Source: Candidatus Kaiserbacteria bacterium
GTDB lineage: Bacteria; Patescibacteriota; Minisyncoccia; Phycocordibacterales; UBA918
DNA length: 64,000 nt
NCBI GenBank assembly: GCA_016699245.1
Contig: CP064968.1
Location: 89,686 to 153,685 of the forward strand
Direction: 5' to 3'
Shown: one piece after another, positions 4,827 through 63,770 of the stretch
How the letters are laid out: every line of letters starts with the position of its first letter
How positions within the stretch are numbered: position 1 is the first letter of the stretch
Position numbers and translations under genes: made by a program
The notes under the pieces: generated by a model
The model's input: the letters and a program-made list of their open reading frames with translations, nothing else
The model's database searches: none
What the model was told of the DNA's origin: nothing

Positions 4827-5846
4827 ATGAGAAATAATACTGATTTATATAATACGGTTGCGCAATTGATGCAGCCAGGGAAAGGTCTGCTTGCTGCTGA
4901 CGAAAGTGATGCAACTGCAGGAAAGCGTCTTGAGATTGCAAAGTTACCCAACCAGCCAGGCAACCGCCAAGATTTTCGCGAAATGCTCTTTACAGCGCCA
5001 GCTATTGAGGAGTACCTGTCGGGCGTTATTCTCTATGACTCAACCATTAAAGAAAGTACCGACCAAGGTGTACCCTTTGTTGATATTCTTGTAGCACGAG
5101 GGATTGTTCCGGGTATTAAGGTGGATATGGGTGTAAAGCCATTTCCGGAATCAGCAGGAGAGGTGATAACGCGTGGACTTGATGGTCTTGAAGATAGACT
5201 TAAGGAATACTATGACATCGGCGCACGCTTCACCAAGTGGCGGGGAGTAATTACCATTGGTGACAATGTCCCCACTGATGAATGTATTGAACTCAATGCA
5301 GTTCAAATGGCTATGTATGCACTCAGTGTGCAAGCACAGGGCATGGTGCCTATCGTGGAACCTGAGGTGATGTTCCAAGGTGACCATTCTCTTGAAGAGG
5401 CAGAAGAGGTGACTACCCGTACACTCACGACACTTTTTGCGGTGCTGAAGAAATACCATGTTGACCTGAAAGGACTCATCCTCAAATCAAGTATGGTGCT
5501 TGCGGGCGACGCATACAAAGAGCAGTCCACGCCTGAAGAAGTAGCTGCATCAACACTTCGCACCTTTAAACTTTCTGTCCCACGAGAGGTGGGAGGAATC
5601 GTATTTCTCTCTGGAGGGCAAACCTCAAAGCGTGCTACGGAGAATCTCCAAGCTATTGCGGCCTTTGGTCCACAACCGTGGCCTATTACATTCTCGTACT
5701 CACGCGCGATTCAGGAACCGGTACTTGTAGCATGGCAGGGTAAATCAGAAAATATTCCACAAGCACAAAAGATGCTTCTCTTCCGCTCAAAGATGAACAG
5801 TCTTGCACAACAGGGCAAGTACAATCCCGCAGATGAGGGTAAATAA
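4827..5846 (+). CDS. fba: fructose-bisphosphate aldolase, class I
   Basis: KGLLAADES signature of class-I aldolases near the N-terminus; likely start at M (4827) inside the longer ORF 4737..5846. Confidence 0.85.
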   Translation: MRNNTDLYNTVAQLMQPGKGLLAADESDATAGKRLEIAKLPNQPGNRQDFREMLFTAPAIEEYLSGVILYDSTIKESTDQGVPFVDILVARGIVPGIKVDMGVKPFPESAGEVITRGLDGLEDRLKEYYDIGARFTKWRGVITIGDNVPTDECIELNAVQMAMYALSVQAQGMVPIVEPEVMFQGDHSLEEAEEVTTRTLTTLFAVLKKYHVDLKGLILKSSMVLAGDAYKEQSTPEEVAASTLRTFKLSVPREVGGIVFLSGGQTSKRATENLQAIAAFGPQPWPITFSYSRAIQEPVLVAWQGKSENIPQAQKMLLFRSKMNSLAQQGKYNPADEGK

Positions 5847-29432: not shown

Positions 29433-30866
29433 ATGAGGGATATAAAATACAGAGATCACGCGGTTGCACCTATGTTATGGTCACGATACGCTACCTATTT
29501 TTTTGTGATGCTCGCTATTCTTCTTATCCCAGTCTTATTAGCATTCAAAGTAGAAGCAGACGTTGCTATTTTTCATTCAGACACGTATCTCGAGCAGGGC
29601 GTTGAGATGACGCATGAGTCAGGAACTGAAAAATATATACAGTATGAACACTTTTGGAGTGATTTTGAAGGAGTTGTTCCCGAAGATGCTCTTGTAAACA
29701 ATATTACACTCCATCTTACGTGGTCACCGGTGACGCGCGTGGTCTCTGATGGGGCAGTGGAAGATTCTCCAAAAGAGGTGACTCCAGAAAGTACTCATGA
29801 AGAGGTGATGAATGAACTACCTACGCCTGAAGAGCAATTAGGGGAATCATTGCATGAGGAACTCCCTGTAGAGCCAGACGTTGCTATTCCTGAAGAAACA
29901 GAACCTTCTTCAGAGGCGGTTATTCCTGTAGACAGTATTGATGAGCCTGAAGAAGTAATTATAGAAGAATCCACCTCTGATTCGCCTCCCGAAGCGAGTG
30001 ATAATTCATCGGAGACTGTGGGATTTGAGGAGGTTTCATGGAATCATTTGTATTCATTAGTTAATGCGCAGATTGAAGAGGAAGTTGCAACAAATACAAT
30101 AGTAATAACTGAAGGAAGTGAACCTGAAGTGATAATTACTGAGTCTATTTCGACCACTTCAGGATTTGTCTCGGAAGATATTTTGATTGAAAATCAGGCT
30201 GAGAAGTTCTTTGAAGTGCGGTATACGATTGATGGGGTGACATGGCAAGAGCTTGGGAATGTTGGATTTGATGATGCACAGGATACAGTATTTGATCTTT
30301 CACCTATAGGTATTGATGCAATACCAAACCTACGCGTTGCTATTCGATACACCGTTCGTGATGGAGAAACGACGAAGATTATTTTTGATTCAATGCGACT
30401 CGAAGTCGGATATGGAGCACCGGTCATAGAGGAAGTCGCTCCGCCCACCCTACAAAATGATAGCGAACCAAATTTTGACGTTGGTGCAATTAAGGCTGAT
30501 GTCCAATCGGAAAATATTCGAGCGGTTGTACTCGAAAGAGGAGGAGTCTTTGAGTTTTGGTACTCCGTCACTGACCCGCAATCAGGTGCAGTTTTTTGGA
30601 ATAAAATTCTTGGAGGAGGGGCTGTTGATGAGAATGCACCGATCGGTATTAAAAAACGGACGATATTTTGGCTTGATCGCAATCAACAAACACTCTTTGG
30701 GTTTGCTGTTGATGAAGAATCAATATTTGCAACTCCATTTCAAGATGACCAGGAAAGTAAAGTCTTTCTCCTTCCATTTACAGATGAAAATGGCAAGCCG
30801 TGGGAAGCACTATTTAATTCCTCAGAGAACGTACTTGAGTTCAGTAAAGTAAAAAGTGAATCATGA
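29433..30866 (+). CDS. membrane-anchored surface protein with E/P/S-rich acidic linker
   Basis: N-terminal TM (FFVMLAILLIPVLLAF), ~120-aa acidic low-complexity region, then a ~250-aa globular region; stop overlaps the start of the giant gene (ATGA). Confidence 0.5.
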   Translation: MRDIKYRDHAVAPMLWSRYATYFFVMLAILLIPVLLAFKVEADVAIFHSDTYLEQGVEMTHESGTEKYIQYEHFWSDFEGVVPEDALVNNITLHLTWSPVTRVVSDGAVEDSPKEVTPESTHEEVMNELPTPEEQLGESLHEELPVEPDVAIPEETEPSSEAVIPVDSIDEPEEVIIEESTSDSPPEASDNSSETVGFEEVSWNHLYSLVNAQIEEEVATNTIVITEGSEPEVIITESISTTSGFVSEDILIENQAEKFFEVRYTIDGVTWQELGNVGFDDAQDTVFDLSPIGIDAIPNLRVAIRYTVRDGETTKIIFDSMRLEVGYGAPVIEEVAPPTLQNDSEPNFDVGAIKADVQSENIRAVVLERGGVFEFWYSVTDPQSGAVFWNKILGGGAVDENAPIGIKKRTIFWLDRNQQTLFGFAVDEESIFATPFQDDQESKVFLLPFTDENGKPWEALFNSSENVLEFSKVKSES

Positions 30867-33800
30867 TGCGAGAGCGGCTCTTTCCATACATACGAGCGTT
30901 GTCGAAAAGACACATACTCATGGTGGGTGTTAGTTTTTTTATTATGGGCGTGTGTATTCTTGGCACACGACACCTTCTCGTTGGTGAAAAAGTTGGGCAG
31001 TTTATAAGGACGAATCGGGCGCTTGCACACTACCAATTCACCCCCACGCATGGCACCATCGTCACCGGCGCATCCACCACCATCACCTCAGCTACCGGAA
31101 ATACTACTGAAGGAGTCAATGTGGGTTCATGGAAGGGAACACTCTCCGACGATAACTATCACTGGGTCGTCGCTGGGGCAGGAGCAAGCGGACTTGATGT
31201 CAACCTCACCATGGGTGGGGTACAGTTAAACGGCGCCAACAAACTCATTGTCCAAACAGAATTTGACCTCGATGCGACCATTCTTGCAACTGAGGTACAG
31301 ATTTGTGACTGGACGTCATCAACTGATGTGGACGATGCCGCAGACAGTGAATGTACGGGTGGCGGGTGGCGTACCCTCAACACAAAAAATGAACTGCAAG
31401 GCCCGCAACGCCTCGTACACAGCACCGGTATCCCATTTCAGTGGCACCTTTATAACGGGTATTGGTCTACCGGCACGACCGGGGGAGCAGCGGTTGATAC
31501 GCCACTCACGAACTTCCTCAACGGTGCCGATCAGATGAAATTCCGATACTTCTCTGCCTCATCGAGCGTGTCCGAAATCGCCATTGACTACCTTCGTGTG
31601 TACGCGGTCGTCGACCCGGTCTATCACGCGGGAGGATTTGTACAGGAATCAGGCGGCACGCCGAGTGGCCACTATGGCAACACCTTTAGCGTCGGCCATT
31701 CCGTGACCGCACAATTCGCGGTGACTACCGGTGATAATATCTACCTCGGTGTCCCCGGTACGGTTGCGACTACATCAAACTTCTACCTCACCTTCAAGAA
31801 CGTGAAGACATACACCGGCATGAATACCATTCTCGTGAACGCCGAGACACTCTGTTCTCTCGCAACGGCTGGTCTCCAGTACCGATTCAAGATTCGCAAT
31901 TTTAATACCAGTATCTGGGAAGATATTTCACAACCACTCGACTGTTCTACCAACGGGTTTTTCAACAACTTTGCCTTAAACAACATCGTCATTGATGACT
32001 ACATCAATGCGTCAAACGAAATATGGGTGGGTGTCTCTGCGCTCTCAAACTCGACGACACAAATTCGCATCGACTCCATCTACCTCATGCTCGGCACTAC
32101 CAACACCGACACGAACAGTTGTGAAATATCATTTGGATCAAACACTGCAGGACGCATTGCCTCAAACCCCTCTGCGCCAGGAGCGGATCGTATCCAAGCA
32201 CTCACCTCAGATGGTACGTATATGTACGCTTCGGGATACGACAGTGCGGGAATCGATAATGAGTGGCGCATAGAGAAGCGCAATCTTTCCGACGGAGACC
32301 TCGTCTCGGCATTTGGTGTTGGTGGCGCAACCTCAACCGATCCCTCAGTTGGTGCCGACCAAATTTTCGCCATCGCCACAACCTCGGGTGCGATATTTGT
32401 TGCGGGGTATGACACAGCAGCGGGCACGGGGCAGTGGCGTATCGAGAAGCGCGATAGTACCGATGGTACGCTCGAAACCGCGTTTGATACGGATGGCATT
32501 ATCACCACAAATCCTTCAGCAAGCCTCGATCACATCAATGCGATTGCCACTGATGCGAGTTACCTCTACGTGGCAGGAGTTGAAAATACTACGAGTGGTA
32601 CGTGGCGCATTCATAAGTATGACATCACCACCGGTGCACTCGTTACCGCATTTGATGGAGATGGTATCGCGACGAGCACGCTTGCTGCCTCGGGCGACGA
32701 ACGACCGCAGGCGCTCAAGGTGGATGGCGACTATCTGTACATCGGGGGATACGACAACCTCTCCGGGAACATCGAGTGGCGTCTCGAGAAGCGCAACAAG
32801 ACCACCGGTGCACTTTGTGCGGGTGGAGGGGAGTGTGCCGCAGGTGCATTTGATACCGATGGTGTGGTGCAGACAAACCCCTCTTCGGGTATTGATGCAA
32901 TACGTGCACTCGCCATTACCGACGCACACGTGTTCCTTGCAGGATACGACTCATCAACCACAAACAACCAGTGGCGCATCGAAAAGCGCGATATCGCGAC
33001 CGGCGCACTCGATACTGCATTCGATACCGATGGTATTATGCAATATAACCCAAGTACCGGTGCTGACTGGATAACCGCACTCGCACTCGATGACACCACA
33101 CTCTACGCGATTGGAAATGTGAGCAACGGTGCGTGGCGTGTTGATGCTCGCGATATCACGACCGGTGCCTCGACGACGTTCTCCGGTAACGGTACGACAC
33201 TCTCTGAAGATGGTGGTGATGACCAGCCACTTGCCGTCGTACAGGAGGGTGGGTATCTCTATGTTGCAGGATACGGCACTGCTCCAGGAGACAACCAATG
33301 GCTCATCGAAAAACTTGCGACGAACACAGGGCTGCGGAGCACCGACAGCTTTGGTGCAAATGATTGCACCGGAACACGAAACATTGATATCACCGGCGGG
33401 AACAGAGATGCATGGACAATCCAGACACAAGATGAATCAACGAATCACAGTACTCCATACTATGCACTCGATACCGACGGTGATGCAGCAATTGAGGAAG
33501 CGGGATCAGCAACCATCGGGTTTTCGGTTGCGGTACCGGGAAACAGTGCTGTCACCGGTATCTACTGGGCAGGACGCGCAATGAACGGTGCAGGAGCGGG
33601 TACGGTGCGCCTTGCCGTGAAGGACTACTCAGGATTCACCGGCCTTACAGGAGGCAGAAGTCTCGTCGGTTCCTCACCAGGAATTGCTATGACATACACT
33701 GATCCCTTGATAGTTGGTGGTATTACCTCAGGAGGTATGGCAGGGTACCTCACAAACCCTGAGGATTATATTGATACCTTAAATAATGAGATGTCACTCA

Positions 33801-34270
33801 GTCTCGTGACCAACTCGGATGGTGCGAGTACCACGAATGCCGTGAACGTATGGGACTTTGCGATGGTGAGTTTTAGTTGGGTGGAGGATCCTGATCATGA
33901 AAGCGCCACGTATCAATTCACCCCCACGCATGGCACCATCGTCACCGGCGCATCCACCACCATCACCTCAGCTACCGGAAATACTACTGAAGGAGTCAAT
34001 GTGGGTTCATGGAAGGGAACACTCTCCGACGATAACTATCACTGGGTCGTCGCTGGGGCAGGAGCAAGCGGACTTGATGTCAACCTCACCATGGGTGGGG
34101 TACAGTTAAACGGCGCCAACAAACTCATTGTCCAAACAGAATTTGACCTCGATGCGACCATTCTTGCAACTGAGGTACAGATTTGTGACTGGACGTCATC
34201 AACTGATGTGGACGATGCCGCAGACAGTGAATGTACGGGTGGCGGGTGGCGTACCCTCAACACAAAATGA
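30863..34270 (+). CDS. giant surface beta-propeller protein, part 1 (N-terminal TM + repeat unit 1 + start of unit 2; truncated by TGA created by an A4 tract)
   Basis: N-terminal TM; ~60-aa repeats of form AGYD...WRIEKRDxxDGTLxTAFDTDGI resembling delta-60-type beta-propeller repeats; terminates at 34268 where copy 2 has A4 instead of A6. Confidence 0.6.
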   Translation: MMRERLFPYIRALSKRHILMVGVSFFIMGVCILGTRHLLVGEKVGQFIRTNRALAHYQFTPTHGTIVTGASTTITSATGNTTEGVNVGSWKGTLSDDNYHWVVAGAGASGLDVNLTMGGVQLNGANKLIVQTEFDLDATILATEVQICDWTSSTDVDDAADSECTGGGWRTLNTKNELQGPQRLVHSTGIPFQWHLYNGYWSTGTTGGAAVDTPLTNFLNGADQMKFRYFSASSSVSEIAIDYLRVYAVVDPVYHAGGFVQESGGTPSGHYGNTFSVGHSVTAQFAVTTGDNIYLGVPGTVATTSNFYLTFKNVKTYTGMNTILVNAETLCSLATAGLQYRFKIRNFNTSIWEDISQPLDCSTNGFFNNFALNNIVIDDYINASNEIWVGVSALSNSTTQIRIDSIYLMLGTTNTDTNSCEISFGSNTAGRIASNPSAPGADRIQALTSDGTYMYASGYDSAGIDNEWRIEKRNLSDGDLVSAFGVGGATSTDPSVGADQIFAIATTSGAIFVAGYDTAAGTGQWRIEKRDSTDGTLETAFDTDGIITTNPSASLDHINAIATDASYLYVAGVENTTSGTWRIHKYDITTGALVTAFDGDGIATSTLAASGDERPQALKVDGDYLYIGGYDNLSGNIEWRLEKRNKTTGALCAGGGECAAGAFDTDGVVQTNPSSGIDAIRALAITDAHVFLAGYDSSTTNNQWRIEKRDIATGALDTAFDTDGIMQYNPSTGADWITALALDDTTLYAIGNVSNGAWRVDARDITTGASTTFSGNGTTLSEDGGDDQPLAVVQEGGYLYVAGYGTAPGDNQWLIEKLATNTGLRSTDSFGANDCTGTRNIDITGGNRDAWTIQTQDESTNHSTPYYALDTDGDAAIEEAGSATIGFSVAVPGNSAVTGIYWAGRAMNGAGAGTVRLAVKDYSGFTGLTGGRSLVGSSPGIAMTYTDPLIVGGITSGGMAGYLTNPEDYIDTLNNEMSLSLVTNSDGASTTNAVNVWDFAMVSFSWVEDPDHESATYQFTPTHGTIVTGASTTITSATGNTTEGVNVGSWKGTLSDDNYHWVVAGAGASGLDVNLTMGGVQLNGANKLIVQTEFDLDATILATEVQICDWTSSTDVDDAADSECTGGGWRTLNTK

Positions 34271-36770
34271 ACTGCAAGGCCCGCAACGCCTCGTACACAG
34301 CACCGGTATCCCATTTCAGTGGCACCTTTATAACGGGTATTGGTCTACCGGCACGACCGGGGGAGCAGCGGTTGATACGCCACTCACGAACTTCCTCAAC
34401 GGTGCCGATCAGATGAAATTCCGATACTTCTCTGCCTCATCGAGCGTGTCCGAAATCGCCATTGACTACCTTCGTGTGTACGCGGTCGTCGACCCGGTCT
34501 ATCACGCGGGAGGATTTGTACAGGAATCAGGCGGCACGCCGAGTGGCCACTATGGCAACACCTTTAGCGTCGGCCATTCCGTGACCGCACAATTCGCGGT
34601 GACTACCGGTGATAATATCTACCTCGGTGTCCCCGGTACGGTTGCGACTACATCAAACTTCTACCTCACCTTCAAGAACGTGAAGACATACACCGGCATG
34701 AATACCATTCTCGTGAACGCCGAGACACTCTGTTCTCTCGCAACGGCTGGTCTCCAGTACCGATTCAAGATTCGCAATTTTAATACCAGTATCTGGGAAG
34801 ATATTTCACAACCACTCGACTGTTCTACCAACGGGTTTTTCAACAACTTTGCCTTAAACAACATCGTCATTGATGACTACATCAATGCGTCAAACGAAAT
34901 ATGGGTGGGTGTCTCTGCGCTCTCAAACTCGACGACACAAATTCGCATCGACTCCATCTACCTCATGCTCGGCACTACCAACACCGACACGAACAGTTGT
35001 GAAATATCATTTGGATCAAACACTGCAGGACGCATTGCCTCAAACCCCTCTGCGCCAGGAGCGGATCGTATCCAAGCACTCACCTCAGATGGTACGTATA
35101 TGTACGCTTCGGGATACGACAGTGCGGGAATCGATAATGAGTGGCGCATAGAGAAGCGCAATCTTTCCGACGGAGACCTCGTCTCGGCATTTGGTGTTGG
35201 TGGCGCAACCTCAACCGATCCCTCAGTTGGTGCCGACCAAATTTTCGCCATCGCCACAACCTCGGGTGCGATATTTGTTGCGGGGTATGACACAGCAGCG
35301 GGCACGGGGCAGTGGCGTATCGAGAAGCGCGATAGTACCGATGGTACGCTCGAAACCGCGTTTGATACGGATGGCATTATCACCACAAATCCTTCAGCAA
35401 GCCTCGATCACATCAATGCGATTGCCACTGATGCGAGTTACCTCTACGTGGCAGGAGTTGAAAATACTACGAGTGGTACGTGGCGCATTCATAAGTATGA
35501 CATCACCACCGGTGCACTCGTTACCGCATTTGATGGAGATGGTATCGCGACGAGCACGCTTGCTGCCTCGGGCGACGAACGACCGCAGGCGCTCAAGGTG
35601 GATGGCGACTATCTGTACATCGGGGGATACGACAACCTCTCCGGGAACATCGAGTGGCGTCTCGAGAAGCGCAACAAGACCACCGGTGCACTTTGTGCGG
35701 GTGGAGGGGAGTGTGCCGCAGGTGCATTTGATACCGATGGAGTGGTGCAGACAAACCCCTCTGCTGGTGTCGATACAATACGCGCACTCGCCATTACCGA
35801 CACACATGTTTTCGTTGCAGGATACGACTCCTCAACCACGAACAACCAGTGGCGCATCGAAAAGCGCGATATCGCGACCGGCGCACTTGAAACTGCATTC
35901 GATACCGATGGTATTATGCAATATAACCCAAGTACCGGTGCTGACTGGATAACCGCACTCGCACTCGATGACACCACACTCTACGCGATTGGAAATGTGA
36001 GCAACGGTGCGTGGCGTGTTGATGCCCGTGACATAACAACAGGTGCCTCGACGACGTTCTCCGGTAACGGTACGACACTCTCTGAAGATGGTGGTGATGA
36101 CCAGCCACTTGCCGTCGTACAGGAGGGTGGGTATCTCTATGTTGCAGGATACGGCACTGCTCCAGGAGACAACCAATGGCTCATCGAAAAACTTGCGACG
36201 AACACAGGGCTGCGGAGCACCGACAGCTTTGGTGCAAATGATTGCACCGGAACACGAAACATTGATATCACCGGCGGGAACAGAGATGCATGGACAATCC
36301 AGACACAAGATGAATCAACGAATCACAGTACTCCATACTATGCACTCGATACCGACGGTGATGCAGCAATTGAGGAAGCGGGATCAGCAACCATCGGGTT
36401 TTCGGTTGCGGTACCGGGAAACAGTGCTGTCACCGGTATCTACTGGGCAGGACGCGCAATGAACGGTGCAGGAGCGGGTACGGTGCGCCTTGCCGTGAAG
36501 GACTACTCAGGATTCACCGGCCTTACAGGAGGCAGAAGTCTCGTCGGTTCCTCACCAGGAATTGCTATGACATACACTGATCCCTTGATAGTTGGTGGTA
36601 TTACCTCAGGAGGTATGGCAGGGTACCTCACAAACCCTGAGGATTATATTGATACCTTAAATAATGAGATGTCACTCAGTCTCGTAACGAACTCGGATGG
36701 TGCAAGTACCACGAATGCCGTGAACGTATGGGACTTTGCGATGGTGAGTTTTAGTTGGGTGGAGCCGGAA
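31023..36770 (+). repeat. 2 x 2,874-bp near-identical tandem duplication inside the giant surface gene
   Basis: Copy 1 31023-33896 and copy 2 33897-36770; the 5' ~1.85 kb is identical apart from the A-tract, with clustered substitutions in the 3' third. Confidence 0.9.
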
Positions 36771-37172
36771 CCCGTGCCAGTCTATTCGATATCAATTACC
36801 AGTGATGGAACAATACAGTATGGGTTTGTAGACCTGAGTGTAGCGAGTTCGACCGTTGGTGGGGATACACAGGCAGCAGAAAATACGGGAAGCCTTAATG
36901 AAAAAATAAATATTCGTTCAAGTAACGCTCTTGGCGGGACGAGCTGGCTTCTTGCATCAGTAATTGGAAGTAATCAGTATACTCATGAATTTTCGACAAC
37001 GACGGGAGTAACGTGGAAAACAATGCCCGATAGCAGTACATACGTGGTTGCAGATCCGTCTGTGACACCAAGTGGTACGGTAGATTTTGATTTTAGACTC
37101 ACGATGCCAAGCGGCACCACTGATTTTGTTGAAAAATCAATTACTATTACAGTCCAGGCCGTCGCCCCATAG
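34266..37172 (+). CDS. giant surface beta-propeller protein, part 2 (remainder of repeat unit 2 + unique C-terminal ~130-aa domain)
   Basis: Frame continuing copy 2 after the A-tract shift (ORF-track 34128..37172; the first ~45 residues of that ORF are out-of-frame read-through). Confidence 0.6.
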   Translation, partial: NELQGPQRLVHSTGIPFQWHLYNGYWSTGTTGGAAVDTPLTNFLNGADQMKFRYFSASSSVSEIAIDYLRVYAVVDPVYHAGGFVQESGGTPSGHYGNTFSVGHSVTAQFAVTTGDNIYLGVPGTVATTSNFYLTFKNVKTYTGMNTILVNAETLCSLATAGLQYRFKIRNFNTSIWEDISQPLDCSTNGFFNNFALNNIVIDDYINASNEIWVGVSALSNSTTQIRIDSIYLMLGTTNTDTNSCEISFGSNTAGRIASNPSAPGADRIQALTSDGTYMYASGYDSAGIDNEWRIEKRNLSDGDLVSAFGVGGATSTDPSVGADQIFAIATTSGAIFVAGYDTAAGTGQWRIEKRDSTDGTLETAFDTDGIITTNPSASLDHINAIATDASYLYVAGVENTTSGTWRIHKYDITTGALVTAFDGDGIATSTLAASGDERPQALKVDGDYLYIGGYDNLSGNIEWRLEKRNKTTGALCAGGGECAAGAFDTDGVVQTNPSAGVDTIRALAITDTHVFVAGYDSSTTNNQWRIEKRDIATGALETAFDTDGIMQYNPSTGADWITALALDDTTLYAIGNVSNGAWRVDARDITTGASTTFSGNGTTLSEDGGDDQPLAVVQEGGYLYVAGYGTAPGDNQWLIEKLATNTGLRSTDSFGANDCTGTRNIDITGGNRDAWTIQTQDESTNHSTPYYALDTDGDAAIEEAGSATIGFSVAVPGNSAVTGIYWAGRAMNGAGAGTVRLAVKDYSGFTGLTGGRSLVGSSPGIAMTYTDPLIVGGITSGGMAGYLTNPEDYIDTLNNEMSLSLVTNSDGASTTNAVNVWDFAMVSFSWVEPEPVPVYSISITSDGTIQYGFVDLSVASSTVGGDTQAAENTGSLNEKINIRSSNALGGTSWLLASVIGSNQYTHEFSTTTGVTWKTMPDSSTYVVADPSVTPSGTVDFDFRLTMPSGTTDFVEKSITITVQAVAP

Positions 37173-57567: not shown

Positions 57568-59086
57568 TTATGGGTGTACGAGGCATCTGCCGGTCATTAC
57601 TGCCGGCTGTGGAAGATTCATTAAGTGAAGGATAGTGGGCGCCACATCAGCGAGTGTCCCGTTTTCAATTTTTTCTTCATGGGAGGTCACAATAACGGGG
57701 ACGTGGTTGGTGGTGTGTGCGGTATGCATTTCACCCGTCTCATGGTTGATATTTTCTTCTGCATTGCCATGATCTGCGGTAATGAGCACAACCCCATCGT
57801 GTGAAAGTGCCGCCTCCACCACACGCTTCAATTGCGTATCCACTTCTGTAAGTGCAATGTGGAGCGCTTCTGTATTGCCGGTGTGTCCCACCATGTCGGC
57901 ATTAGCGAAATTGATAAAAATGAAGTCAGTTCCTTTCTCTATGGATTCGAGCGCCTTATCAGCAATTTCTTTTGCACGCATTTTTGGCGCGAGGTCATGC
58001 GTGAGTACGTCTTTGCGACTCGGTACGAGAATGTGCTCCTCACCAGGGTAGGGAAGTTCATGGCAGCAATTGAGAAAGAATGTTGCATGCGCATACTTTT
58101 CTGTTTCGGCAATGTGTGCCTGTGAAAGTCCGGCATCAGAAACTTCTTTTGCGAGCGTTGTCGTAATTTCTATTGGAGGGAATGCAACATGCGCAGGAAT
58201 TCCTTTCTCGTACTCGGTAAGTGTCACAAAACACAAATCCTTCTTCTCTGCATGCGTCACAATTTTACTCGAGAGCATGCGCGCTCGATCAGAGCGGAAA
58301 TTAAAAAAAGAAAATTCCATCATGATCCATCACCGTGTACTGGTGCCCCTCTTCATCAAGGAAAACGGTGGGTTTCACATGCTCATCAAAGACACCCTCT
58401 GCATACAACTTCTCCATTATCTCAGATGGTCTGCATGTATGCTCAGTGTTATCACATCGTCCATGGAAAATTGCATCCTCAACACGCTCGAGCCTGTCCC
58501 AGTTGTTGTCTCTATCCATTGCATAGAAACGTCCGGCGGTGGTGGCAATAAATCCGATGCCTAAATCATCGATGACGTCCTCAAGTTCCTTGAGATACTG
58601 TGCTGCACTTCGTGGCCCTGTGTCGCGTCCGTCGGTAAATGCGTGAATGGCTATTTTTGTTACACCCGCCTCTTTTGCCGCCTTCATAAAAGCGTACAGA
58701 TGGCTACTGTGACTATGGATTCCTCCCGGGGAGAGGAGCCCTTTGATATGCAACACCGAATCGTGCTTTTTTACATGGTCAAATAGTTTTATAAAAGCAG
58801 GATTCGTCGCAAACTCATTATTTTTTACCGCCTTTGATATGCGGAGTAAGTCGGTATCAATAATTTTACCTGCACCGATGGTCATGTGTCCCACTTCACT
58901 ATTTCCCATCTGGCCAGAGGGAAGACCGACACTCTCCGAACTTGCTTCAAGAAGCGCATGAGGATAGGTATTCCACAAGGAATCAAAAAATGGTGTCGGC
59001 GCTTCTGCTATGGCATTATCGCGCGTCTCTTCGCGATGCCCCCATCCATCGAGAACAATGAGAACCGTTGGTTTTTTATCGTGCAT
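57568..59086 (-). CDS. gpmI: 2,3-bisphosphoglycerate-independent phosphoglycerate mutase, split by a -1/+1 frameshift at a T7/A7 tract near 58294-58325
   Basis: N-terminal half (58301..59086: VLDGWGH, catalytic Ser region) and C-terminal half (57568..58323: FNFRSDRAR...DHGN) together equal a full ~510-aa iPGM; junction ...IFF|FNFR falls in a homopolymer run. Confidence 0.8.
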
Positions 59087-59150
59087 ATCAATATTTTAAA
59101 TAAGTTCCAAGTATACTACATAATTTGTGTGTATCTATAGATATGTATAT
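58950..59150. repeat. copy A of a ~190-bp diverged direct repeat (gpmI 5' end + upstream region)
   Basis: Roughly 80-85% identical to 60740-60900. Confidence 0.6.
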
Positions 59151-59206
59151 GTTAAAAAAAGATAGAAAGTTGTGTCCTGTTGCTCTTGAGGTCAGACATC
59201 AAAAAC

Positions 59207-60673
59207 CTATAGCGAGAGTCTATATTGTGTATAATTTAAGAAATCATTGATACTTACTAAATTACCTTGACAACTGGAACAAGAGTAAATATGAATATCT
59301 TTTGGGATAGTTCCACCATGTATGTCGAATAGTGGTACCAGGCAGTGAGGACACATATAAGGTTGCTGCGTATTGCTCCGTTGTGTACCAGAGTCTAGAT
59401 ATTTTACAAAATAATCCTTGGTGTCAATACTCGATAGTGAATAGAATGAACCTTTATCAAACCAGATGTTAATACATACACCACATACCCAGGCCTTTCT
59501 CTGTATGTCGTGTGGCCCTAATGCATCAATCTGTGTAAGTGTATGGCCGCACACGCTGCAGGCTAATAATTTTATTGGGCTATACGACTCGGTAACTGTA
59601 GGGTCAAAACTTTTTATTAGTCGTAACCTTTCTTCAATGAGTTGTTCTTCGAAAGATTGATCTTTTTCTGACGTACTTGCTAAAAAGAAAGGTGAGTAGT
59701 AGGCAAATTCCTGATATGTCTCATCTTGTACAATCATTAATACTTTGTTCAATGCAGAATAGAGTGCTTGTGGATGACGAGTAAGTTCAAGTGCTTTAAG
59801 GTCTGCATAAATTGCCTCACCATAATTCATGGTGTAGTAAATGAATCCCGTGATCAGTACGATAATCAAATGAATCGGGTTCATCACTAAAAAGACTAAA
59901 CCAGCCCCAATAGTGTTGTTTAATGATTTATGCTCATCTAAAAATATCCCGACGACAATTGCGACATACATTCCAAGCCATATGAGTGGTAAAAACGGGT
60001 GTATGGTTCCAAGGAGAAGTAAGAATGAGAGTAGCCCAACAACTTTAGTTATAGTAATTAACCATTCAACAGTCCTTCTCGTTGATATCTCATCGGAAAG
60101 ATAGTGGCCAATTTCATGTGCAATGTATGCTTCTGCTTCACTCACACTAAAATATTGAAGTAAACTCGTACTGACATGTAGTTGTGGGGCACCAATAGTC
60201 CTTAGGTGTAAGAAGAGTTTTGGCATATTTCCTGCATACATAATCAGTTGTGGCGTTTCGATGCCTGCCGTTTTTGATAAGTTTTCTAGAATTTTTTGTA
60301 TCGTAACTCTGTCGACGTGTTTTGTGTGATCAGTATGTGTTCCGTTTTGGACAATGAATTCTTGAGCAAAATATGCAACAACAAGAAGTATTATGCTAAA
60401 CCACACGTCATTATAAATATACGTGTCGTGCAGGTACGTCGTATGTACAAAGAGTTGATATGCCAGATACGATATGCCAAGTATCAGGAATATAAGTGCC
60501 AGAATAATATATGCGCGTTTTCTTTTTACACGATCAACAACCGTCCAATAGGTCTCATTCTTTTTATTAGAAAAAATTGTCTGACTGAATAGTTTTCCCA
60601 AATACCTCGCAATTACATCATTTTTGAATGCTAGGGGAAAGACAATTATGATATATATAAAAACAGATGACAT
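59207..60673 (-). CDS. membrane M48-family zinc metallopeptidase (HtpX-like) with C-terminal double Zn-ribbon
   Basis: AHEIGHYL (HExxH) with flanking TM helices; C-terminal CSVCGH...CGVC and CPHC...CSSC pairs. Confidence 0.65.
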   Translation of the reverse strand: MSSVFIYIIIVFPLAFKNDVIARYLGKLFSQTIFSNKKNETYWTVVDRVKRKRAYIILALIFLILGISYLAYQLFVHTTYLHDTYIYNDVWFSIILLVVAYFAQEFIVQNGTHTDHTKHVDRVTIQKILENLSKTAGIETPQLIMYAGNMPKLFLHLRTIGAPQLHVSTSLLQYFSVSEAEAYIAHEIGHYLSDEISTRRTVEWLITITKVVGLLSFLLLLGTIHPFLPLIWLGMYVAIVVGIFLDEHKSLNNTIGAGLVFLVMNPIHLIIVLITGFIYYTMNYGEAIYADLKALELTRHPQALYSALNKVLMIVQDETYQEFAYYSPFFLASTSEKDQSFEEQLIEERLRLIKSFDPTVTESYSPIKLLACSVCGHTLTQIDALGPHDIQRKAWVCGVCINIWFDKGSFYSLSSIDTKDYFVKYLDSGTQRSNTQQPYMCPHCLVPLFDIHGGTIPKDIHIYSCSSCQGNLVSINDFLNYTQYRLSL

Positions 60674-60750
60674 ACACTTTATTATACTTCACTGTATATG
60701 TTAGAAGTGTATATTATCCTTGTTCTCAAGGTCCGACTCCGGGAATCGTA

Positions 60751-60852
60751 TCAAAAAAGTGCAAGAGTTTCCGCAATGGCACTATCGAGAGTTTCCTCGC
60801 GATGCTCCCACTCGTCGAGAACAATAAAAATCGTTGGTTTTTTATCGTGCAT
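60751..60852 (-). pseudogene. duplicated 5' fragment of gpmI (33 codons: MHDKKPTIFIVLDEWEHREETLDSAIAETLALF*)
   Basis: Copy B of the direct repeat; cf. authentic [33 protein letters not shown]. Confidence 0.55.
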
Positions 60853-61017
60853 ATCAATGTGTTACATAAGTCCCAAGTATACTACATAATCAACATGCAT
60901 ATAAAAATGTATGTATGCAAAGAAAGAGTAAGGGACTGTAATTTGCTCACCGTATGAGGTGTGATTTTTATTTATTTCCTGAACGCGGACTGGTGTATAA
61001 TGAAAAACCGTTCGCAA

Positions 61018-61467
61018 TTATCTAACCATAATTGTATTTTCATCTGATGGGGCATTTGAATTAAGGGTTCCTTTGAAGACCTCAATACTACTCACAGACA
61101 AAGAACCTTCCCCTTGGTGTTCCCAGAAAACAATACTTTCATCTGCATTAGCATACCGAGCACCACTAGCAGAGATGGCTTGAGGCAAAGTTATTGTTCC
61201 GGTTTTTGGGTGTGTAAAAGTAACTGTATTATGTGAATTGTTAAAATTGACAGCGAGAGACTCTTGTCCAGAATGATATATGACAGAAACAATAGACGAC
61301 TCATCCTGTTCTTGTGTGTTTATTTCACGTTCATATTTATTCCAGCCATCAGTCGTCATAAAGAAAGGAAGGTAATTATTGAGTGAACCGTTTTTCCATA
61401 CGACAGCAAAAAATACAAATAGGATAATAGCAATAATAATATAAATATTTTTTTGAGTTGTTTGCAT
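61018..61467 (-). CDS. membrane-anchored MliC/PliC-like lysozyme inhibitor
   Basis: N-terminal TM; ISASGARYANADESIVFWEHQGEGSL resembles the MliC SxSGAxY...W.KG.E block. Confidence 0.45.
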   Translation of the reverse strand: MQTTQKNIYIIIAIILFVFFAVVWKNGSLNNYLPFFMTTDGWNKYEREINTQEQDESSIVSVIYHSGQESLAVNFNNSHNTVTFTHPKTGTITLPQAISASGARYANADESIVFWEHQGEGSLSVSSIEVFKGTLNSNAPSDENTIMVR

Positions 61468-61832
61468 ATCTCATACGATACCACAAGTTCGAACTTACTA
61501 CATGAAAAGTGAAAAGGAGAGTGAAAAGAAAAGTAAAAAAGTATCAAGGTTTTGAAAATCTCTGGCAGGGAAGGATTGATAAAAGTTACCGTTTCTACTT
61601 TCACGTAGTTGAACCTTATTACATTATTGTTTCAGCCATTATTCATTCCAAGTGATGTACTCTTATTGGTGTCTATTAAGTGAGACACGGATTAGGAGGG
61701 GTTTTTTCAAGGTTCCCGAGGACCGACCTCGGGAAACTTTTAATAAGCTCCGTCGACAGGAGGATTCTTCCATTACATGGACTGTTTAGGTCGTATGACA
61801 ATTTAAGTTCCCTAGGGCTCCCCTGGGAACAA

Positions 61833-61866
61833 AGAAAATCGCCTGACCAAGGTCAGGCGATTTTGG
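61833..61866. terminator. bidirectional rho-independent terminator
   Basis: aatcgcctgacc-aa-ggtcaggcgatt perfect 12-bp stem with flanking T-runs on both strands. Confidence 0.55.
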
Positions 61867-61886
61867 TGGATTGTGGGTAGGGAAAA

Positions 61887-62177
61887 TCAACTGAGAAGTG
61901 TACCAACGGCGACAAGGAAGTTGCCCACTGTGCCGGTCCCAAAAAGGAAGCCGAGTAGAGTGCAAACAGCAACCGCAGGCCATAAGATATAAAAACCCAA
62001 ACGGTGATCATGCCAGCGATGGCCAAACCCCCAATGTCCCACAGCCTCGGAAACGATAACAATCCCAAGTGCTCCAAAAAGAACAATCATCCATGCGGTT
62101 ACGAGTATGGGAGAAAATATACCCAACCCAAGACCGACGATAAAACCAACAAAATACAGAAACAGTAACTCTAACAT
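61887..62177 (-). CDS. small hypothetical membrane protein (His-rich C-terminal half)
   Basis: 96 aa, 3 TM helices; a truncated paralog lies at 63367..63570. Confidence 0.4.
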   Translation of the reverse strand: MLELLFLYFVGFIVGLGLGIFSPILVTAWMIVLFGALGIVIVSEAVGHWGFGHRWHDHRLGFYILWPAVAVCTLLGFLFGTGTVGNFLVAVGTLLS

Positions 62178-62260
62178 CAGGATTCTCCTTTAAATAACAC
62201 GAAAGCAAAGCAGATTCTATCACTCGTATTGACTACTGTATAGAGACACTCTTTCCTTTG
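62031..62260. repeat. copy A of a ~225-bp direct repeat (~93% identical) flanking the fic gene
   Basis: Matches 63424-63650; covers the 5' half and upstream region of the small membrane-protein gene. Confidence 0.8.
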
Positions 62261-62448
62261 CATACTGTTTCTAAAATATTATCATTTAGAAACTGCCTAT
62301 GGATTTTCTGATGTATGTATATCACTATGCTACTCGTCTCTCATAGTAAATATTAGTGAATAAGTGTCTATTTTAACTACCTATTCACTAAACTTTGACA
62401 ATAAGGTGTGAAAACACTATAATATTAAAGGTTAATTAACTAAACATT

Positions 62449-63342
62449 ATGGCTATCACCAAACCAATCATAACGAGACTCCAAAATCTCAAGATTGCCT
62501 TTGAGACTCTCAAAAAAGGCAAAGAATCACTCTTGGTACTAGTAGATGAGGCTGAAGTGGCTGAGGCAGTCTACAACTCTAATGCTATCGAAAACTCGAC
62601 ACTCACACTCAAAGAGACAGAGAAGATTCTTTTGGAAATGGCTGTGGCTCGAGAGGTATCTGTTCGAGAAGTTTTTGAAGCAAAGAATCTCGCTCGAGTA
62701 GTTGCGTACATTAGGAACAAATCGCAAGAGCTCGAAATAAATAAAGAAGTAATTCTTTTTCTCCATCAGATGCTTATTAGTGGTATCAACGATGAGATTG
62801 CAGGCCGTTTTCGAAAGACAGGTGAATACGTTCGGGTTGGTACACATGTCGCTCCCGCACCAGAACATGTTGAAAGAATGATTGACTCATTACTTTCCGA
62901 ATATACAGGTAATCTCTCAAACTTTTTTTTGGATAAAATTGCAAAATTTCACCTCGAGTTTGAGACGATTCATCCGTTCTGTGATGGTAATGGTCGTATT
63001 GGTCGTGTCCTTATAAACTATCAATTACAAAGACTTGGGTTTCCAGGTATTATTATTCGTGATAAAGAAAAGAAAGAGTATTACAGCACCTTTACTGAAT
63101 ATCGAGACAAAAAGACAGCGAAGAAAATGGAAAAGATACTCGCTCTTGCTCTCACGGAATCACTCCATAAAAGAATCACGTATCTTAAGGGTGATAAAAT
63201 TGTGACTCTTTCTGATTATGCAAAAACTAGTCATGCATCAGCATCTGCAATCTCTAATGCTGCGCGCCGACAAAACATTCCTGCCTTCAGAGAGAAAGGT
63301 GTTTGGAAAATTGCGGAAGGATTTGTTTATAATCCAAGTTAG
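62449..63342 (+). CDS. fic: Fic/Doc family protein (AMPylase-like) with C-terminal wHTH
   Basis: HPFCDGNGRIGR matches the Fic motif HPFx(D/E)GNGRxxR. Confidence 0.8.
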   Translation: MAITKPIITRLQNLKIAFETLKKGKESLLVLVDEAEVAEAVYNSNAIENSTLTLKETEKILLEMAVAREVSVREVFEAKNLARVVAYIRNKSQELEINKEVILFLHQMLISGINDEIAGRFRKTGEYVRVGTHVAPAPEHVERMIDSLLSEYTGNLSNFFLDKIAKFHLEFETIHPFCDGNGRIGRVLINYQLQRLGFPGIIIRDKEKKEYYSTFTEYRDKKTAKKMEKILALALTESLHKRITYLKGDKIVTLSDYAKTSHASASAISNAARRQNIPAFREKGVWKIAEGFVYNPS

Positions 63343-63366
63343 AAAATTCAATATACTCTCATTCGT

Positions 63367-63570
63367 CTATGAGTACTCAGCGGTACACACCAACATTCGT
63401 GAATAGAGATACTTCAATCGAACCCAATGTCCCACAGCCTCGGAAACGATAGCAATCCCAAGTCCCCCAAAAAGAACAATCATCCATGCAGGTACGAGTA
63501 TGGGAGAAAATATACCCAACACAAGACCAACGATAAAACCAACAAGATACAGAAACAGTAATTCTAACAT
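63367..63570 (-). CDS. truncated/diverged duplicate of the small membrane protein gene
   Basis: The first 48 residues are nearly identical to the 61887..62177 product; the C-terminus differs. Confidence 0.35.
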   Translation of the reverse strand: MLELLFLYLVGFIVGLVLGIFSPILVPAWMIVLFGGLGIAIVSEAVGHWVRLKYLYSRMLVCTAEYS

Positions 63571-63650
63571 CAGGATTCTCCTTTAAATAACAAGAAATCA
63601 AAGCAGATTCTATCACTCGTATTGACTACTGTATAGAGAACTCACGGAAA
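63424..63650. repeat. copy B of the ~225-bp direct repeat flanking fic
   Basis: See copy A. Confidence 0.8.
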
Positions 63651-63770
63651 AATTTTTCTCACTCAACAATCCCGAGGAAAGACTGTACATTTTTGGATGT
63701 AAGTACCTATTGAGTATAAAAAGAAACCGCCCAACTAAAGCCAGACGGCTTCGGTAGGGTGGTTGGTTAG

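Follow-up and report, generated by a model that had tools for sequence, protein, structure and literature searches.

Class II Fic proteins, including FICD/HYPE, Bacteroides BT_2513, Clostridioides CdFic and Shewanella SoFic, carry an inhibitory motif in cis, and the Fic protein described here likewise combines a core (HPFCDGNGRIGR) with such a motif. Its predicted fold resembles that of FICD, and the model suggests a C-terminal winged helix as in SoFic. However, it is only ~25% identical to any solved structure, and in contrast to the known class II proteins it represents a separate subfamily that is extremely conserved and has a conserved operator-promoter leader of its own. The SoFic and PDC-S04 single-gene systems are anti-phage candidates in PADLOC-DB, and the present family resembles them in its HMM matches and in its restriction-modification company. 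SoFic has been reported to be paired with a downstream 47-aa antitoxin, AS1 (PMC12249575). In contrast to SoFic/AS1, the locus here offers no space for a downstream antitoxin, the host belongs to the CPR/Patescibacteria, and a defence role is a candidate function only.

The arrangement around fic also recalls several known kinds of gene acquisition. Merodiploids formed by suicide vectors (Campbell-type integration) show the same target-homology repeats around the insert, with one gene copy truncated and the other intact, and the present arrangement would likewise be reversible by recombination between its repeats, but here the homology is just 217 bp, the copies are 5% diverged, and no replicon, circle or donor was identified. 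Integrase islands (attL/attR) and transposons with target-site duplications similarly bracket their cargo by a target duplication and keep the target functional, whereas the present locus has no integrase or transposase, att core or terminal inverted repeats, and its duplication is far longer than that of a transposon and variable in length between loci. In plants, single non-transposon genes are reported to have been relocated together with long direct repeats on their flanks (Woodhouse et al. 2010, PMC2869330); these transposed genes serve here only as the nearest described pattern, and they are a eukaryotic phenomenon. Our literature search returned no account of this Fic subfamily, nor of bacterial insertions with long duplications.

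We propose, with a probability of roughly 60% for the joint explanation including its mechanism and function, that a foreign fic gene was inserted into the chromosome of a Candidatus Kaiserbacteria bacterium, with duplication of its target, in a single, recombinase-independent step. The gene acquisition is real and tidy, and its kind is broadly known. A tiny, streamlined CPR genome has gained a single accessory gene of defence type with no visible mobile-element machinery, and the empty site in relatives, two adjacent independent events and exact junctions make this an unusually well-defined case. Should target duplications of this length and variability turn out to recur regularly, they would be the mark of horizontal gene gain by a route that is independent of recombinases and is not sought by current island and transposon finders.

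Insertion of fic into a small membrane-protein gene

A repeat search of the window (the whole 64,000-nt stretch of DNA that was analysed) revealed one direct-repeat pair of 217 nt, copies A and B (Table 1), identical at 206 of 217 positions (95%). Because the window holds just four repeat families of ≥50 nt, the pair is not a chance occurrence. The original prediction had described direct repeats of ~225 bp around fic, at 62031-62260 and 63424-63650 and with ~93% identity; self-comparison confirmed the pair, at a length of 217 nt, and showed that the outer boundary had been overshot by 11-14 nt. It had further described two copies of the promoter-proximal half of a small membrane-protein gene, the downstream one truncated, with fic lying precisely between them, and both points were borne out. 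Between copies A and B fic is the sole gene, and with its operator-like repeats and its own consensus promoter it makes up a self-contained module. The truncated copy forms a 67-aa ORF, in which residues 1-49 are common to the 96-aa protein (44/49 identical) and are followed by 18 unrelated, insert-derived codons.

The 217 bp that are duplicated begin 4 nt ahead of the -35 box and end with codon 49. Each copy carries, on the minus strand, a predicted promoter of the extended -10 type (TATACA-17-TAGAAT with TG) and a ribosome-binding site (AGGAG). The duplication left one side of the insert with an intact promoter-gene unit, and the target gene thereby survived; target duplication of this kind lets a recipient gene outlast an insertion. 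On the other side lies a promoter-bearing truncated pseudogene aimed at the 3' end of fic, and the predicted promoter in copy B, with no terminator after it, would probably give antisense transcription over fic. Hydropathy analysis of the 96-aa protein placed two hydrophobic spans in its N-terminal part; a His-rich loop follows, and then one or two more spans. Exact look-up returned no record for the 96-aa protein or for the 67-aa protein of NCBI.

Table 1. Features of the fic locus and of the adjoining second insertion (window coordinates)
Feature	Position	Strand	Remarks
D2a, proximal copy	58987..59159	-	promoter and 5' end of iPGM; runs on into the full gene
M48/HtpX-like metalloprotease cargo, 488 aa	59207..60673	-	C-terminal zinc ribbons
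D2b, distal copy	60753..60925	-	iPGM promoter and 33 codons, truncated; 77% identical to D2a
Intrinsic terminator of the small gene	61835..61864	-	kept in relatives
Intact small membrane-protein gene, 96 aa, insertion target	61887..62177	-	92% identical to P0001 of relatives
Repeat copy A	62030..62246	-	promoter 62242-62214, RBS, codons 1-49; runs on into the intact gene
Inserted foreign DNA, 1176 bp	62247..63422	+	37.2% GC vs 45.6% (window); not in relatives L002-L006
Operator-like inverted repeat TAGTGAATA-N19-TATTCACTA	62354..62390	+	just upstream of the fic promoter
fic's own promoter, perfect TTGACA-17-TATAAT	62395..62423	+	predicted; conserved at other loci
fic, class II Fic, putative AMP-transferase, 297 aa	62449..63342	+	Pfam Fic; motif; predicted fold
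Truncated ORF, 67 aa	63367..63570	-	NCBI: hypothetical protein IPH92_00645
Repeat copy B	63423..63639	-	promoter 63635-63607, RBS, codons 1-49; joined to the native upstream region

The repeats could in principle be an artefact of a long-read MAG, if sequences had been wrongly joined or a collapsed region duplicated during assembly. Homopolymer frameshifts do occur in the assembly, at least once (iPGM is split by an additional T in a T7 run), and the junction between the insert and copy B was not spanned by any independent contig among those retrieved. However, the copies differ at 11/217 positions and have different unique flanks. An independent Logan short-read contig (L001, run SRR11674051) corresponds to window 62217-63411 with 100% identity and spans the junction between copy A and the insert, ending exactly where copies A and B become identical. 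Copy D2b of the second insertion is internal to another independent contig of that run (L087, covering ~59076-62036). We consider an artefact extremely unlikely.

The search for an uninterrupted locus in related genomes, suggested with the original prediction, was successful. Five contigs (L002-L006), from a relative with ~90% nucleotide identity, carry the locus uninterrupted and without fic, with genes for TrmB, a 129-aa protein, a 96-aa protein, a 70-aa protein and iPGM. Positions 5002-5330 of L002 align colinearly with window 63744-63423, and positions 5114-5527 with window 62246-61833, which shows that the 217 bp is single-copy in the relative and that the flanks are colinear. The uninterrupted locus thus identifies the arrangement as an insertion, in which low-GC foreign DNA entered the 5' half of the 96-aa gene and 217 bp of the target were cleanly duplicated. 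L002 also contains a piece of 66 bp with 98.5% identity to the promoter region of the window lineage and only ~80% identity to its own copy, indicating that this segment was exchanged between lineages.

An empty site can also be restored when the repeats recombine, and the relatives therefore give the event no strict polarity. If the fic arrangement were ancestral, the relatives would have lost fic in this way and their empty site would be secondary. Recombination between the 217-bp repeats does give back a perfect single copy, and the age of the duplication seems similar to that of the split from the relatives. However, the relative's copy is no left/right chimera of B-type and A-type sequence: the copy-specific sites along the repeats, which were inspected for a crossover point with no outgroup, are interleaved. 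In addition, fic, MliC and the M48 gene are all missing together from 5/5 relative contigs, and the insert is compositionally foreign. An earlier insertion with duplication would still be required, which changes the timing of the event and not its nature. Ancestral presence of fic is therefore very unlikely.

A donor search with the parts of the insert flanking fic (62247-62344 and 63343-63422) gave only chance-level short matches. The closest fic has 86% nucleotide identity, with homology ending inside the insert; at the closest fic loci, homology goes no further than 62301-62321 to the left and 63335 to the right. An Rfam search of 57-64 kb gave only a sub-threshold match to PK-repZ (24.8 bits vs 44), which was taken as chance.

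Other fic loci and the mode of insertion

The fic family has at least 8000 members, with 65-94% protein identity across phyla, and the hosts of the module include Patescibacteria classes, Latescibacterota, Elusimicrobia, Desulfobacteria and Gemmatimonadota, among others. The low GC content of the insert and the occurrence of the same module across many phyla point to a foreign origin. Recurrent neighbours at 80 other fic copies were HsdM/S and HsdR, and the company of the family also includes GmrSD and toxin genes.

Flanking duplications were present at 7/68 fic loci (~10%), compared to 7/178 neighbouring ORFs (4%), a modest enrichment (Fisher p=0.067). The flanking repeats at other fic loci are 37-252 nt long, all locus-specific and unrelated between loci; in unrelated phyla the duplications are 37-70 nt, in unrelated targets. 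Two of these loci (L032, L074) have a truncated 5' gene fragment before fic and an intact gene after it. Among nine repeat-flanked inserts, the distance between fic and the junction varies (94-264 nt at the left end, 9-241 nt at the right end), and no terminal sequence is common to the nine.

A second event of like shape is found 1.3 kb away from the fic insertion, where the M48/HtpX-like gene is flanked on either side by a 173-nt copy of the promoter and 5' end of iPGM (D2a and D2b, Table 1). The second insert (59160-60752) has a GC content of 37.0%, and the M48/HtpX-like gene is downstream of the duplicated iPGM promoter in the same orientation. In both events the whole predicted promoter is inside the duplication.

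Cargo within direct repeats, here and at several other fic loci, is what a site-specific mobile element would leave, with a recombinase or transposase acting in trans and the repeats being att-like or target-site duplications. However, no integrase or transposase was found in the insert, nor did any recur near the 80 other fic copies. The insert ends have no inverted repeats or conserved sequence, the duplications are not of fixed length, unlike those of transposons or IS elements, their sequences are unrelated between loci, and the adjoining M48 cargo has nothing in common with fic. Such an element is highly improbable. Features of an integron cassette, in which a promoterless ORF is followed by attC, were not seen either: no conserved 3' element was found, palindromes are confined to the operator-like repeats on the 5' side, and the module has its own promoter. 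Searches of viral contigs, plasmids and phages with Fic returned only Fic proteins at ≤35% identity, with no vector and no close relative. The sequence TCCCGAGGA was considered as a junction or recombination signal (11 copies vs 3 expected, some near junctions), and was rejected as its placement relative to the repeats is inconsistent.

Copies A and B differ at 11 positions, and each differs from the relative at 10-11. Among the 217 sites, six states are specific to A, five to B and five to the relative. The differences in the intact copy are codon-changing only, and those in the truncated copy are mostly synonymous. The D2 copies show the same equidistance. A metagenome scan with the 96-aa protein gave 442 pattern matches and 0 relatives, and with the iPGM N-terminus the best identity was 60%; as these scans yielded no further close relatives of the locus, the tree of A, B and the relative is left unrooted. 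The equidistance of the copies, together with the substitution pattern, suggests either an old event or the import of a copy from a related lineage. Both observations are opposite to what a recent in-situ duplication predicts.

Import would correspond to Campbell-type integration, in which a circle of ~1393 bp, consisting of the fic fragment and one 217-bp copy, came from related Kaiserbacteria and entered by a single RecA-dependent crossover. The circle might have been looped out in the donor lineage via the same repeats, and then taken up by transformation. The geometry of the locus equals that of single-crossover integration of a fragment with the 5' end of the gene but without its 3' end, and the divergence between A and B is about that from the relative. 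The mostly synonymous differences in copy B look as if they had evolved in a functional gene elsewhere, the D2 copies are equidistant too, and the 66-bp piece of L002 shows exchange of the segment between lineages. However, this route only shifts the problem to an earlier time, since formation of the first circle would itself require a duplicative insertion at this place, and no circle, plasmid or viral copy of the module was found in the searches. Nor could a foreign circle bring the homology required for the 37-70 nt duplications in unrelated phyla and targets, and 217 nt with no outgroup is too small a sample to decide. We regard Campbell-type integration as possible, though on the unlikely side.

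In the one-step insertion that we favour, the foreign fragment would have been integrated by recombinase-independent, illegitimate duplicative joining. Two staggered breaks, or breaks in sister chromatids, 217 bp apart may have allowed the incoming fragment to be joined between them; alternatively, a replicative template switch may have given the same product. Selection may have retained the event because a complete promoter and gene were restored through the duplication. The 'duplication-mediated capture' of the original prediction finds no backing here, as nothing indicates a pre-existing duplication, and the data fit a single insertion/duplication event or a single-crossover integration.

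A broader proposal is that the fic module is a recombinase-free selfish or defence cassette, which crosses phyla as naked DNA and integrates by an undescribed duplicative process that copies tens to hundreds of bp of its target. This proposal is quite unlikely in our estimation. If true, target copying (217 bp here, 37-252 bp elsewhere) would rebuild whichever part of the gene struck had been hit, be it promoter, 5' end or terminator. The same route would also account for the M48 insertion and for a third pair of repeats that the relative has at the same promoter, and would point to a general way in which naturally competent CPR bacteria gain genes.

The Fic protein and its leader

The 297-aa protein matched Pfam Fic (PF02661) with 76.9 bits, against a cut-off of 24. 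The catalytic loop HPFCDGNGRIGR at aa 175-186 fits HxFx(D/E)GNGRxxR, and residues H175, F177, D179, G180, N181, G182, R183 and R186 are invariant in 41 homologues. Also invariant in the 41 homologues is an inhibitory motif, SNAIEN, at aa 44-49 (S44, E48, N49), which aligns to TVAIEG of FICD, fits (S/T)xxxE(G/N) and is N-terminal to the core in the same chain. A neighbouring antitoxin or an inhibitory motif had been suggested as a check on the gene; the motif is present, within Fic itself, and there is no separate antitoxin. The presence of the motif in cis indicates a class II, self-inhibited Fic, for which no separate antitoxin is expected. No ORF of the class I antitoxin type (FicT/FicA, VbhT/VbhA) was found in the 1176-bp insert. 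Only 80 nt of the insert follow the fic stop codon, and the sole ATG-initiated ORF there (27 codons) crosses the junction into copy B; no AS1-like small antitoxin was found downstream, and 80 nt leave no room for 47 aa.

An AF2 model built from the 41-sequence alignment had pLDDT 66 and pTM 0.70, with the N-terminal half at only moderate confidence; a single-sequence prediction gave pLDDT 35. In a Foldseek search the AF2 model matched FICD, BT_2513, CdFic and SoFic (E down to 6e-8, TM 0.63). A C-terminal winged helix-turn-helix is predicted at ~aa 250-290, seen only in the model, and the isolated C-terminal 57 aa matched no Pfam family.

Among the PADLOC HMMs, the protein matched PDC-S04 (9e-38) and SoFic (1.6e-27). 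The NCBIfam equivalogs gave 31.9 bits for SoFic (NF046030, cut-off 550) and 30.4 bits for NmFic (cut-off 230). Judged by its sequence, the protein is a relative of SoFic and not an orthologue. The motifs suggest an AMP-transferase that would be held off by Glu48 of its own inhibitory helix, and by analogy with SoFic and PDC-S04 it may act as a toxin of the defence or abortive-infection type. The 'effector' reading that was first entertained is unlikely, because the family is found in restriction-modification and defence neighbourhoods and matches PADLOC candidates.

The operator-like repeat upstream of fic lies within a leader of ~100 nt, which is conserved across phyla and travels with the gene. 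We hypothesize that fic is transcriptionally auto-repressed, with the C-terminal winged helix binding to predicted TAGTGAAT half-sites. The operator-like repeats and the recognition helix of Fic co-vary, and this provides a directly testable regulation model for class II Fic proteins with DNA-binding tails.

Repeat pair, insert and empty site

A repeat search of the window, which holds only four repeat families of at least 50 nt in its entire 64 kb, revealed a direct repeat of 217 nt (copy A, 62030-62246; copy B, 63423-63639; 206/217 identical). The original prediction had placed these repeats correctly on either side of a fic gene, except that it overshot the outer boundary by 11-14 nt. By hydropathy, the protein encoded by the intact small gene has ~43 hydrophobic residues at its N terminus, arranged as two spans, followed by a His-rich loop and one or two more spans. 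NCBI annotates the truncated ORF and Fic (locus tags IPH92_). The GC content is 37.2% in the insert between the copies, 45.6% in the window as a whole and 47% in the core genes on either side.

Features of the fic locus and the neighbouring accessory region
Feature	Position in window	Strand	Remarks
Predicted extended -10 promoter of small gene	copy A 62242-62214; copy B 63635-63607	minus	TATACA-17-TAGAAT with preceding TG; promoter prediction
AGGAG ribosome-binding site	in copies A and B	minus	
Codons 1-49 of small gene	in copies A and B	minus	
Intact small gene	61887..62177	minus	96 aa; copy A reads on into the ORF
Terminator of 96-aa gene	61864-61835	minus	
Insert between copies	62247-63422		1176 bp; one gene only, fic
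Inverted pair of TAGTGAAT half-sites	62354-62390		upstream of -35 box
fic promoter	62395-62423		perfect TTGACA-17-TATAAT; in conserved leader
fic	62449..63342	plus	convergent with truncated ORF
Truncated ORF	63367..63570	minus	67 aa; at copy B end; residues 1-49 shared, then 18 unrelated codons
Second repeat pair	58987-59159 and 60753-60925		173 nt, 77% identical; iPGM promoter and first 33 codons duplicated
M48/HtpX-like protease gene	59207..60673		488 aa, with zinc ribbons; between 173-nt repeats
MliC-like lysozyme-inhibitor gene	61018..61467		between the two insertion events
RelE/ParE-like toxin remnant	61542-61655	plus	C-terminal half; between the two insertion events

An orthologue of the 96-aa protein (92% identical) is present on five contigs from other samples (L002-L006), in the gene order TrmB, 129-aa gene, 96-aa gene, 70-aa gene (opposite strand) and 507-aa iPGM. 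The fic, MliC-like and M48 genes are all absent from this locus in L002-L006; the uninterrupted locus, which the original prediction had proposed to look for in related genomes, was found. L002 5002-5330 aligned with window 63744-63423 (upstream region and copy B), and L002 5114-5527 with window 62246-61833 (copy A, the remainder of the gene and the terminator). The relative thus has just one copy of the 217 bp, with colinear flanks on both sides, as an insertion with a 217-bp target duplication would predict. Foreign DNA with one self-sufficient gene was inserted, and 217 bp of the target were duplicated around it. The locus is a well-documented, polarised case of single-gene acquisition in a CPR genome.

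Two short-read contigs of an independent Logan assembly (SRR11674051) matched the window with 100% identity. L001 (window 62217-63411) spans the copy A/insert junction and starts at the exact point where copies A and B share their final 30 nt, and L087 covers window ~59076-62036. Neither crosses the insert/copy B junction. In view of these matches an artefact of assembly is very unlikely; of the two junctions, the copy A/insert one was crossed independently.

The Fic protein and its module

Fic contains a canonical catalytic loop, HPFCDGNGRIGR, and has a Pfam Fic score of 76.9 bits. The original prediction had proposed checking for a neighbouring antitoxin or an inhibitory motif. The motif is present within Fic itself (S44-N-A-I-E48-N49); no antitoxin gene fits within the insert, and none is expected for a class II Fic. 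The motif aligned to TVAIEG of human FICD, whose glutamate, as established for class II Fic proteins, is auto-inhibitory, and was invariant across 41 homologues. Its location in the Fic chain and its invariance identify Fic as a predicted class II, cis-inhibited protein. A structure model based on a 41-sequence alignment (pLDDT 66, pTM 0.70) matched FICD, BT_2513, CdFic and SoFic. The best-predicted region was aa 220-297 (pLDDT 84-92), and the terminal fold is a predicted beta-helix-helix-beta-beta winged helix.

Fic matched the PADLOC models PDC-S04 (9e-38) and SoFic (1.6e-27), but fell far short of the NCBIfam SoFic and NmFic equivalog cut-offs, which indicates a relative, rather than an orthologue, of these defence candidates. 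SoFic was reported to require a 47-aa downstream antitoxin (PMC12249575), whereas just 80 nt of insert follow the stop codon of this fic. The gene adds a new member to the known class II Fic family and shows affinities to the SoFic/PDC-S04 defence candidates.

More than 463 full-length relatives with 65-93% protein identity were found in the genome collection, in many Patescibacteria classes, Latescibacterota, Elusimicrobia, Desulfobacteria, Gemmatimonadota, Thermodesulfovibrionia and others. The protein database contained at least 8000 Fic family matches at E<=1e-30. Nucleotide similarity of fic loci to the window begins ~100 nt before the ATG (~62343-62356), or farther upstream in the closest relatives (62301-62321), and ends at the stop codon. 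At other loci the genes that recur next to fic are type I R-M HsdM/S and HsdR, and the two closest homologues (94% and 92%) adjoin an EcoRI-type methylase, GmrSD and HigB. No recurring integrase or transposase was found near this self-contained and very mobile module, and no close Fic relative was found on a plasmid, phage or viral contig.

The conserved leader (window 62345-62448), also found upstream of fic at the other loci (L007-L086), contains three or four copies of the 8-nt half-site TAGTGAAT. Besides the inverted pair, one copy lies in the promoter spacer and often one ahead of the ATG. The half-sites contain GTGAAT or GTTAAT, and seven loci have GTTAAT throughout all copies. At Fic residues 264-269, which form the second helix (predicted recognition helix) of the predicted winged helix, S-(V/I)-(H/N)-x-L-L replaces S-A-(S/P)-A-x-x in exactly six GTTAAT loci, the six of the seven with readable C-terminal sequence (L074 was unscored). 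This co-variation gives good, though indirect, support to repression by Fic of its own promoter via its C-terminal domain.

Second insertion and accessory mosaic

A second pair of repeats surrounds an M48/HtpX-like gene (Table), and the relatives contain iPGM without this gene. The M48 insert has a GC content of 37.0%. Its gene lies downstream of, and in the same orientation as, the duplicated iPGM promoter, so the duplication may also drive this cargo. The sole homologue of the protein (54% identical), in another CPR genome, has GmrSD and an EcoRI-type methylase as neighbours. In each of the contig regions with the closest Fic homologues and this M48/HtpX-like homologue (L088 6001-9195, L089 2978-6172, L170 3844-8411), the cargo homologue adjoins the same pair of an EcoRI-type methylase and GmrSD (type IV restriction). 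The two cargo genes thus derive from defence islands of one kind.

Over 38 aa the toxin remnant, which lies next to the MliC-like gene, shares 87% identity with an 81-aa gene in L002, where the full RelE/ParE-like toxin adjoins a MazE-type antitoxin. Accessory and defence-type genes thus make up a small mosaic at 59160-63422, with conserved genes on either side.

Two further observations concern this region. Compared with the 507-aa gene of the relatives, iPGM in the window (57568-59086) has an additional T in a T7 run near 58301-58323, which breaks it into two overlapping ORFs; this is most likely a homopolymer error of long reads and not a pseudogene. An Rfam PK-repZ match at 60638-60777 (+), overlapping the M48 gene start and the distal repeat copy, is probably due to chance (24.8 bits against a gathering score of 44, E=0.035).

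Mechanism and age of the duplication

The duplication starts 4 nt upstream of the -35 box, so a complete promoter-gene unit was regenerated. The fic insert contains no mobility gene or conserved end. The most likely explanation would be a one-step, recombinase-independent duplicative integration. A DNA fragment would have been joined into the gap between two breaks lying 217 bp from each other, either on the same duplex or on sister chromosomes, or else a replicative template switch would have placed it there. Selection would filter for events after which the target gene still works. In form the event is similar to Campbell-type integration or to a target-duplicating island insertion, but it has no recombinase, att core or transposon ends. 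The copy B remnant is a promoter-bearing pseudogene facing fic, with no predicted terminator between them, which makes antisense transcription from its promoter into fic plausible.

Among the 68 other fic loci with enough flanking DNA, seven have a direct repeat on both sides within 500 nt; an eighth case, L032, lies outside the test because its flank is too short. The repeats (37-252 nt, 77-98% identical) are unrelated from locus to locus. They are terminator hairpins in L048 and L051, other local sequence in L022, L049 and L057, and the promoter and 5' coding sequence of the downstream gene in L032 and L074, with the same truncated/intact geometry as in the window. The repeat-flanked inserts share no common terminal sequence, and the distance from fic to the junction ranges from 94 to 264 nt upstream and from 9 to 241 nt downstream, which argues for random break points rather than site-specific recombination. 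Among neighbouring ORFs comparable in size, 7/178 are flanked by such repeats (odds ratio 2.8, Fisher p=0.067). The enrichment at fic loci is modest. A more novel reading, a general recombinase-free duplicative route of gene gain, would be compatible with the evidence, though not strongly supported by it.

With the relative as third taxon, the 217 sites include 6 differences unique to copy A, 5 to copy B and 5 to the relative; the corresponding numbers for the second repeat (138 core sites; proximal, distal, relative) are 7, 18 and 6. The distance between the duplicated copies is thus about the same as that to the orthologue in a species-level relative; either the events are not recent or one of the copies derives from another lineage. 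Oddly, all differences in intact copy A are codon-changing (four amino-acid changes), while those in truncated copy B are three synonymous and one non-synonymous (p ~0.05 on nine sites). A 66-bp piece of the small-gene promoter region also lies at L002 1821-1886, 3.2 kb upstream of the relative's own copy, and is 98.5% identical to window 63683-63618 but only ~80% to that proximal copy. The promoter region has been exchanged or duplicated more than once. These patterns keep alive the main rival, in which a circle bearing the 217-bp segment integrated by one homologous crossover; this accounts for the geometry and divergence as well as duplicative integration does, but presupposes an earlier event of the latter kind. 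Two metagenome scans yielded no closer relatives of the locus.

The 66-bp piece forms a third direct-repeat pair at this promoter, flanking GH-like, TrmB and 128-aa genes. Elsewhere in the window, a tandem duplication at 30863-37172 (period ~2878-2880 bp) includes stretches that are 100% identical. It covers two very large ORFs, of 1135 and 1014 aa, neither of which matches Pfam, in a region whose GC content is 53% against 45% for the window. The motif TTCCCGAGGA (<=1 mismatch) occurs 11 times against 3.05 expected, at 61702-61746, 63669-63678 and nine other sites; two copies pair as a hairpin (61713-61735), and a further copy is situated 24 nt outside copy B.
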